This document shows, one piece after another, positions 34,074 to 35,404 of a stretch of DNA of 64,000 nucleotides; position 1 is the first letter of the stretch, and each line of letters begins with the position of its first letter. Origin of the DNA: Octopus vulgaris (Eukaryota). The notes below the pieces were generated by a model that saw only the letters and a list, made by a program, of their open reading frames with translations, ran no database searches and was not told the DNA's origin. The position numbers and the translations under genes are program-made. The stretch spans positions 29,140,001-29,204,000 of the forward strand of contig OX597820.1 of NCBI GenBank assembly GCA_951406725.2. The letters are read 5' to 3'.

Positions 34074-34128
<55 letters not shown>

Positions 34129-34318
34129 ATACTAAGTAATTAAGGGTTTAGCAACGATTTGCCTCACCACACACCGAATTTAGAAATAGCAGTCAAAGAG
34201 TTATAGCTATTCTTTCTACTAAAAGGGAGATCTCAGTAAAACCACAACACTTGAAAAGCAAACACAGACAGGCAAGAGAGAAAGAAGTGACGGCAATCTA
34301 TCATACAATTTTAAGTCA

Positions 34319-34408
34319 CCTACGGACGTACGTTTCGAAATTAAGTTTTAGGAAAGCATAAGAATTAGATAATTATGTCTTACCCAACTTCTTTTCTATC
34401 AGCGTAGG
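34319..34408 (-). ncRNA. Type I hammerhead, core-defective copy
   Basis: Reverse complement of 34980-35070 but core reads CTGATAG (G of CUGANGA deleted). Confidence 0.65.
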
Positions 34409-34979
34409 ACACTACAATTATGAATAATTGTATATTAAATTTCGAGATACTAGAAGGCATCATCTCAACTCAGTATCAGAGCGAGCTAAAACCGTTACCA
34501 GTATCACCAAATTCAAAGTGTGAATGAAAGTTTGTGTCACCAACCCCTTCCCACCAGCGTGTAGCCAAGACAAGATGTTGTGGTCATTTACTGGGATGAA
34601 ATATGGTTATCAGTAATAATATAGGGTGGAATTAATTAATTTGGAATAATTATTAATTTCACCAAGTAGATTTCGGCATGTAAAAGCCTCATTCGAGGAA
34701 AGTTTAAGTAATACTAAGTAATTAAGGGTTTAGCAACGATTTGCCTCACCACACACCGAATTTAGAAATAGCAGTCAAAGAGTTATAGCTATTCTTTCTA
34801 CTAAAAGGGAGATCTTGTCTTGGCTACACGCTGGTGGGAAGGGGTTGGTGACACAAACTTTCATTCACACTTTGAATTTGGTGATACTGGTAACGGTTTT
34901 AGCTCGCGCTGATACTGAGTTGAGATGATGCCTTCTAGTATCTCGAAATTTAATATACAATTATTCATAATTGTAGTGT

Positions 34980-35070
34980 CCTACGCTGATGAGAAAAGAA
35001 GTTGGGTAAGACATAATTATCTAATTCTTATGCTTTCCTAAAACTTAATTTCGAAACGTACGTCCGTAGG
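34980..35070 (+). ncRNA. Type I hammerhead ribozyme, intact core
   Basis: CCTACG-CTGATGA-[60-nt stem II, GAAA/TTTC closing]-GAAA-CGTAC-GTC-CGTAGG; predicted cleavage after 35064. Confidence 0.85.
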
Positions 35071-35360
35071 TGACTTAAAAGTGTATGATAGATTGCCGTC
35101 ACTTCTTTCTCTCTTGCCTGTCTGTGTTTGCTTTTCAAGTGCTGTGGTTTTACTGAGATCTCCCTTTTAGTAGAAAGAATAGCTATAACTCTTTGACTGC
35201 TATTTCTAAATTCGGTGTGTGGTGAGGCAAATCGTTGCTAAACCCTTAATTACTTAGTATTATTTAAACTTTCCTCGAATGAGGCTTTTACATGCCGAAA
35301 TCTACTTGGTGAAATTAATGATTATTCCAAATTAATTAATTCCACCCTATATTATTACTG

Positions 35361-35404
<44 letters not shown>

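Follow-up and report, generated by a model that had tools for sequence, protein, structure and literature searches.

An ORF-less hammerhead unit with head-to-head arms in octopus microsatellites: a probable non-autonomous Penelope-like element

The window, by which we mean the whole 64,000-nt stretch of octopus DNA analysed here, is AT-rich and carries microsatellites and repeat fragments throughout. One insertion within it, locus A (34125–35364), comprises 1.2 tandem copies and a further 0.95 inverted copy of a 582-nt unit. Its target flanks are a (TA)n microsatellite on the left (34074–34125; 26.5 copies by TRF) and a (TA)n-rich microsatellite on the right (35364–35501). Taking sense from the hammerhead described below, the left arm is on the minus strand, with one complete unit at 34125–34706 and a second, partial tandem copy of 109 nt at 34707–34815 that matches 34125–34233 at 109 of 109 positions (period 582), in the manner of a pseudo-LTR. 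The right, inverted arm (34812–35364, plus strand) is 553 nt long and consists of unit positions 131–582 and a 100-nt tail. The two arms meet head-to-head in hammerhead sense at an ATCT microhomology (34812–34815) that is part of both, and the right arm differs from the left at 6 of 553 positions, one of these differences (35320/34651) being a common polymorphism of the family. A preliminary description of this DNA had reported a tandem plus inverted unit of ~582 bp and the ATCT at the orientation switch; both were recovered.

As the hammerhead sense is minus in the left arm and plus in the right, both outer ends of locus A are sense 3′ ends. The left arm finishes at what we term end site 1 (...TTAGTATTACT), which abuts the (TA)n at 34125/34126. 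The right arm finishes at end site 2 (...TATTATTACTGATAA), the terminus of the tail segment (35265–35364, plus strand), which contains a hairpin at 35308–35346. The two sites lie ~100 nt apart on the unit, each with the motif TATTACT, and the left arm holds an internal equivalent of the tail, a copy of the ~100-nt segment between them (34607–34706, minus strand).

The right arm of locus A carries a type I hammerhead motif with a canonical core at 34980–35070 (plus strand). Stem I has 6 bp (CCTACG/CGTAGG, 34980–34985 with 35065–35070), the core reads CTGATGA at 34986–34992 (CUGAUGA in RNA), and stem II (GAAA/TTTC) is a G–C-closed helix of 4 bp running into a 60-nt hairpin (34993–35052). GAAA follows, GAAACGTACGTC occupying 35053–35064, and stem III is a 2-bp helix (A–U/C–G) with a GUAC loop, set within the palindrome ACGUACGU (35056–35063). 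Cleavage is predicted between 35064 and 35065. The motif recurs in all seven unit copies of the window, and GAAACGTACGTC is kept in 7 of 7, in line with the invariance stated before. The strict CUGAUGA core is found in one copy of the seven: the left-arm copy of locus A (34319–34408, minus strand) lacks core G8 and is predicted to be inactive, and all five copies at a second locus, locus B, have CCGAUGA (U4C), with GAGA/TCTC in stem II and one G–U pair in stem I. A descriptor requiring the core, stem II, GAAA, UH and stem I, run over both strands of the 64 kb, gave six matches, every one in the 582-nt unit; with U4C allowed, six of the seven copies pass. The claim of a canonical type I hammerhead at 34980–35070 is thus borne out for the motif and for the core in place there, but the canonical core is confined to one of seven copies and stem II extends over 60 nt. 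The Rfam hammerhead models gave no match at gathering score over the window, nor at E ≤ 10 over 34700–36300, probably because stem II is so long.

Two further observations concern hammerhead sequences. The internal loop extending stem I (34978 and 35072; the region of 56508 and 56603 in locus B) is G/G in locus A and A/A in locus B, a paired change that, judged from sequence, may mark a conserved non-canonical contact. Elsewhere in the window the pattern CUGANGA...GAAAC is matched four times against 0.54 expected, at 30569–30592 (−), 43064–43087 (+), 46691–46721 (+) and 63450–63473 (−). None of the four passes the stricter descriptor; some may be what is left of minimal hammerheads from other Penelope families.

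Like canonical metazoan type I hammerheads, the motif has a 6-bp stem I, G10.1–C11.1 and a short stem III with a palindromic loop; it departs from them in stem II, since theirs has 4 bp and a terminal loop 2 docking on loop 1, and here the 60-nt hairpin leaves no terminal loop 2 at that place. The palindromic 8-bp stem III duplex is computed at −9.8 kcal/mol, and two copies folded as a double hammerhead with this 8-bp stem III in common are better than two monomers by 8.2 (A) and 6.8 (B) kcal/mol, the active monomer fold exceeding the minimum by 3.2 kcal/mol in A and 3.9 kcal/mol in B. The best fold of the hammerhead is predicted to be a dimer, which agrees with the dimer logic for metazoan type I hammerheads in the passages of PMC4209133 used here. 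For the U4C core, the part of PMC3088659 that treats it gives lower activity in vitro and tolerance in a viroid. When we call the unit a ribozyme, we do so on motif and predicted folding.

Locus B (54716–57456) is ~89% identical to locus A and embedded in (GATA)n, with three antisense copies followed by two-plus sense copies. Its left arm (54716–56293, minus strand; copies B1, B2 and B3) begins beside the (GATA)n at end site 1, 4–5 nt inside, and has skips of ~137 nt and 11 nt at 55743–55758. Its right arm (56294–57456, plus strand) contains B4, B5 and then a tail, from which a 41-nt hairpin is skipped and which stops at end site 2, next to (GATA)n. The arms switch strand at CACC (56290–56293), at the base of the same hairpin whose 41 nt the tail skips. 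An 8-nt insertion is present in B2 (a partial copy) and B4, and absent from B1, B3 and B5. As it is found only in B2 and B4, in the same register, both arms copy the same two-monomer order, and 54716–55743 and 56366–57393 are reverse complements at 99.8%. Copies within one locus are 99–99.8% identical, and the unit period is 582–597 nt at every tandem junction of the two loci.

Comparing the two loci, the left ends lie 4–5 nt apart and the right ends at most 1 nt apart, for which we estimate a chance of ~4 × 10⁻⁴ if ends were uniform over 582 nt. The flanks differ, with (TA)n on both sides of A and (GATA)n on both sides of B, and a target-site duplication is unreadable inside such flanks. The earlier claim that both loci share ends beside microsatellite therefore holds, with offsets of no more than 5 nt. 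The number of insertions mapped end to end is two, and our description of the ends as defined rests on these two of two loci together with weak hints from contigs given below.

Folded as a circle, the unit is computed to be 62–63% paired, with z = −5.0 (A) and −4.2 (B) in sense and −2.5 and −1.6 in antisense (30 shuffles each; 0 of 30 as good as the sense unit); the linear locus B monomer gives z = −5.7, with 0 of 100 shuffles as good. For a test of constraint, the 57 substitutions between the right arm of A and its locus B counterpart were compared with the same types of substitution placed at random. In the structure predicted from A they break 12 of 171 pairs against 21.1 ± 2.9 expected (P = 0.0008), and in the reverse test 10 of 153 against 16.7 (P = 0.013). 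Doubly compensated pairs number 2 against 0.9–1.0 expected (P 0.22–0.27). The preliminary description had argued from covariation between the loci; its examples in stems II and I are real, but with two compensated pairs against about one expected, double compensation is no commoner than chance, and we dropped covariation as proof of structure. The structural signal is change that preserves pairing by wobble, not covariation, and the pairs are preserved through G–U wobble on one strand only. Family variants taken from contigs behave similarly, 5 of 35 breaking a pair against 9.7 expected (P = 0.02). These 35 come from the 40 shown among 68, of which 4 fell outside the right arm and 1 was already in it; 24 of the 35 match the B allele, and among the remaining 11 there is 1 break, with 3.4 expected (P = 0.06).

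These results bear on a rival explanation in which RNA plays no part: the locus arose at the DNA level as a satellite, by fold-back duplication or as an artefact of assembly, and its hammerhead is a fossil or is there by chance. Both strand switches do lie at 4-nt microhomologies, one of them within a hairpin, and palindromes are prone to mis-assembly. Yet the arms of locus A are asymmetric at the six positions noted, both ends are common to two dispersed loci, and substitutions spare RNA pairs by wobble on one strand. Furthermore B3, without the 8-nt insertion, is no mirror of the adjacent B4, for which reason we rejected fold-back self-copying of locus B. We consider a DNA-level origin very improbable.

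The unit has no ORF, as had been described: the longest stop-free run is 69 codons over 12 frames (GC content 0.356 and 0.367). A splice-donor-like AG/GT lies directly 3′ of the ribozyme, and a pyrimidine tract ends in AAG ~70 nt further on (35069–35140, plus strand). A short intron can occur at this position in Penelope elements. The idea of an intron here (pyrimidine tract 35103–35140) was dropped, there being no skipping joint among those listed for the contigs.

At a distance of about 600 nt from locus A, the minus strand carries the 5′-truncated and frameshifted C-terminus of a Penelope/Poseidon-type RT–GIY-YIG protein (35960–36601). An ORF piece within it (36139–36555, −) has 52–59% identity to RT-bearing proteins in five matches among 100 candidates, and tblastn with five Penelope proteins against the window extends the remnant to 36108–36601, the other match being weak (E 0.08, 8604–8708) and outside both loci. 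Its CxYxIPCSCG...YxGET motif, with no linker zinc finger, we take to be the C-terminus of a Penelope/Poseidon-type element. Read by eye, the remnant has a degenerate minimal hammerhead of its own near 36010–35990, in the 3′ UTR. We found no DNA similarity between remnant and unit (best BLAST E 0.27) and no counterpart of the remnant at locus B, and on these grounds, together with its own hammerhead, we rejected it as the unit's own ORF. The linkage to a Penelope RT/GIY-YIG ORF for which a search had been proposed is thus absent from the window, the nearby remnant being unrelated in DNA, and neither locus shows the RT plus GIY-YIG ORF between pseudo-LTRs of an autonomous Penelope.

The surrounding window contains other repeats and fragments, which we record for completeness. 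A 298-bp direct repeat (32926–33223 and 33452–33746, 94% identical, ending beside (TA)n) lies ~400 nt left of locus A and has no match to the hammerhead unit, and a dispersed repeat of ~595 bp (10546–11140 and 53378–53961, 91% identical) occurs in opposite orientations. Broken ORF pieces at 17236–18908 (−), 3905–4780 (−) and 50000–51447 (+) resemble, as we take it, a DNA-transposon gene and two LINE fragments. Pfam gave nothing significant for five ORF pieces of the window (one match at E 0.054), including the four tested of DNA-transposon or LINE type. A U6 snRNA match at 42851–42954 (−; 59.7 bits) has a degenerate 5′ stem and probably marks a pseudogene or a retrocopy.

The stretch, or part of it, is present in 20 of the 24 public sequencing runs listed, 16 of them with at least half of the sampled words; these runs come from nine studies under four organism labels, and one may be the source of the window itself. 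We compared contigs of four runs (three labels) on 34234–34815, a permuted single unit. Matching contigs numbered 1017, 1419, 1223 and 170, filled 30 of 30 bins in all four runs and ranged in identity from below 90% to above 99%; from these sequences, the unit belongs to a large and varied family. G8 is the family state, contigs of all four runs having an extra C behind 34397. U4C makes up 65%, 25%, 26% and 67% of summed depth at its site in the four runs, and is therefore a subfamily rather than the decay of one locus; it is also found with the A-type GAAA stem, in loose contig ends. We found no description of the family as such in the open literature covered on octopus and cephalopod hammerheads, retrozymes and non-autonomous Penelopes, passages of PMC8967140 included, though subscription papers, preprint supplements or Repbase/Dfam entries may contain one. 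Patterns of the hammerhead core and 3′ end gave 0 matches in viral contigs and 0 in metagenome contigs.

Contigs also inform on the ends. One joint steps back exactly 582, and in one contig a (TA)n tract lies at 34715, the position of end site 1. Summed contig depth, which depends on contig breakage and is not copy number, steps up 3.8-, 7.2-, 32.6- and 4.1-fold across end site 2 and 2.2-, 1.9-, 1.6- and 1.4-fold across end site 1, and declines 5′-ward. This is a weak hint of the profile that fixed 3′ ends and 5′ truncation would give. A dip in depth at 34374–34413 was not counted as a finding. Loose contig ends lie at 34760 and 34779, just upstream of the two 3′ ends, which suggests diverged relatives with only the 3′ part in common. 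Separately, two contigs (682 and 461 nt) contain 106–136 nt of the unit and then unlike sequence, and could be truncation junctions or a path to an autonomous partner.

We must ask whether the copies are simply debris of an autonomous Penelope, that is, pseudo-LTRs left as 5′-truncated ends where the element itself bears an ORF. Their architecture matches Penelope insertions, an RT/GIY-YIG remnant lies close to locus A, and depth peaks near the two 3′ ends with some contigs diverging just upstream, so that the 3′ region may be common to other families. Against this, the period of 582–597 nt holds at all tandem junctions and at the one contig joint, and since it does so no ORF fits in the unit. 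The neighbouring remnant is unlike the unit, has its own hammerhead and is missing at locus B, and the depth continuing into unlike sequence is 0, 0, 0 and 0.04 of the total in the four runs. Debris of this kind is, in our judgement, an improbable source.

The closest likeness is to the animal non-LTR retrozymes. In the parts of PMC7229834 and of the preprint bioRxiv 10.64898/2026.07.22.740005 available to us, these are ORF-less tandem units with one type I hammerhead per unit, GC below 50% (36–37% here), strong self-pairing and a weak stem III of 2 bp whose palindromic tetraloop lends itself to cleavage as a dimer, and both propose them as non-autonomous Penelope derivatives. Going by its sequence, the unit has the testable features of an animal non-LTR retrozyme. 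At 582–597 nt it is above the range of 150–450 bp given in PMC7229834, though within the 51–972 bp of the preprint; retrozyme stem II is described in these excerpts as 4 bp and a loop, in contrast to the 60-nt hairpin here. The unit differs further in its inverted arms, two fixed ends, microsatellite targets and U4C as a major subfamily. By term search, 'inverted' is absent from the main text of PMC7229834 and occurs in the preprint only in one reference, and 'tail' is absent from the preprint's text. More broadly, we found no description of inverted arms plus a tail on a retrozyme in the portions covered of the literature on retrozymes with inverted or target-primed insertion. The preprint, in the sections used, derives retrozyme units from Penelope pseudo-LTRs, reports cleavage in one of nine tested and counts as 'active' two consecutive units with complete hammerheads. 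Locus A has one complete hammerhead and one without G8 on opposite strands, and hence no consecutive complete pair; locus B has consecutive complete hammerheads only if U4C counts as complete.

The arrangement of the copies, by comparison, is that of Penelopes. Endonuclease-bearing Penelope-like elements (Penelope/Poseidon, Neptune, Naiad) and their pseudo-LTRs, as covered in part in PMC8557442, PMC3846280, PMC11167929 and PMC4209133, likewise have a partial tandem and, head-to-head with it, an inverted 5′-truncated copy. They further resemble our loci in that one end may be extended 3′, the target is AT-rich or a microsatellite, the repeat contains a hammerhead and the junctions show microhomology. 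Partial tandem, inverted 5′-truncated copy, optional tail and microsatellite bias are given as Penelope-like marks in excerpts of PMC8557442 and PMC3846280, and the pattern of a partial tandem with an inverted 5′-truncated head-to-head copy is seen at both of our loci, as are microsatellite targets. Set against these elements, the unit has no ORF, its two recurring 3′ ends are ~100 nt apart where the printed Penelope tail is 30–40 bp, and in its hammerhead stem I reaches 6 bp and stem III is a real one, where most animal Penelopes, in the sources as excerpted, have the minimal form. Non-coding Penelope parasites are already on record in the passages of PMC8557442 and PMC9977147 on the non-autonomous Chlamys elements (MRC1, Chlamys-N4), which have pseudo-LTRs, multicopy head-to-tail insertions in microsatellites and 3′ ends in common with an autonomous partner; those, however, are of a green alga (Chlamydomonas) and of a clade without canonical hammerheads.

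A further comparison is with L1 elements. In L1 twin priming, cDNAs from both target strands are joined at a short overlap, giving a 5′ inversion. The unit resembles this in its two-strand cDNAs with a short-overlap join, but it lacks a poly(A) tail, its two starts are internal ones that recur from locus to locus, and at locus B one and the same part of the template is copied in both arms.

Taking these comparisons together, our favoured reading, which we hold to be probable, is that the ORF-less 582–597-nt hammerhead unit, with its head-to-head arms in microsatellites, is a non-autonomous Penelope-like element, i.e. a non-LTR retrozyme, that uses a borrowed RT-endonuclease. The suggestion of a mobile ribozyme element with defined ends is supported by unlike flanks and common ends at two of two loci, by the ORF-less period of 582–597 nt and by the large family in public runs; a separate new class it is not. 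The class is already in print; new here are the signature of Penelope insertion, the long tail and the monomer variants of locus B.

How might such an element move? The arm polarity fits priming from both target strands, by analogy with the anole Penelope protein. In the passages of PMC11167929 drawn on here, the purified protein acts on both target strands by cutting and extending them, a dimeric state is predicted for it, and it has two internal RNA starts that match the genomic tail; an anole element with a mutated hammerhead inserts normally. In the scheme that we propose for the octopus element, a tandem source array would be transcribed into a multimer, and the borrowed enzyme, probably a dimer, would nick both strands of an AT-rich microsatellite. 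Each nick would prime cDNA at an internal RNA start, the top strand at site 1 and the bottom strand at site 2; the cDNAs would extend over one to three units, with occasional microhomology jumps, and would finally join head-to-head at a 4-nt overlap, ATCT in A and CACC in B. For cutting, the hammerhead is predicted to need either a dimer or the help of a protein, so that multimers left uncut would provide the template; like that of other retrozymes, it may in addition set free monomers or circles.

The variant order at locus B speaks for a template that spanned three or more units and whose ribozymes were uncut, or else for a dimeric circle, and a monomer circle fits poorly; this inference is drawn from one locus, where gene conversion between palindromic arms, or two independent slippages in the GAAAGAAT repeat, could mimic a common 8-nt insertion. 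We therefore offer as a tentative proposal, possible rather than probable, that the retrozyme moves by two-strand Penelope priming on uncleaved multimer RNA. Its ends would be the two RT starts of one dimer, each at UAUUAC, the monomer order would record the source array, and the cleavage-weak U4C subfamily would have spread as well as the canonical one.

The alternative is that the same element uses a circular RNA template, monomers of 582–597 nt being cut and circularised and the RT then rounding the circle; passages of PMC4209133 propose that a circle gives more-than-unit cDNA, a model since assumed for retrozymes. The predicted cleavage site is indeed crossed by every arm, in circular form the unit pairs strongly with itself (63% paired, z −5.0), the copies within a locus are near-identical, and coral, mussel and axolotl retrozymes make circles according to the part of PMC7229834 consulted. 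A dimeric circle would also yield the Y-X-Y order of locus B. A monomer circle, however, predicts identical units, whereas at locus B two types of monomer alternate, with the same register in each arm, and the arm difference of locus A at 35320/34651 is a common family polymorphism. Nor is it easily squared with U4C at 25–67% of depth despite its lower in vitro cleavage (PMC3088659, in part), or with the normal insertion of the anole ribozyme mutants (PMC11167929, as excerpted). A circular template seems to us unlikely.

The link between animal retrozymes and Penelopes has so far rested on co-occurrence and sequence trees. In the present family a retrozyme-type unit bears the signature of Penelope insertion. 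The family is also abundant, with canonical and U4C ribozyme subfamilies and with monomer variants that mark the template, so that a genome-wide tally of ends and monomer order could decide between circle and multimer without new experiments. If the multimer proposal is true, retrozymes would need neither ribozyme cutting nor circular RNA in order to move, contrary to the assumed rolling-circle model.
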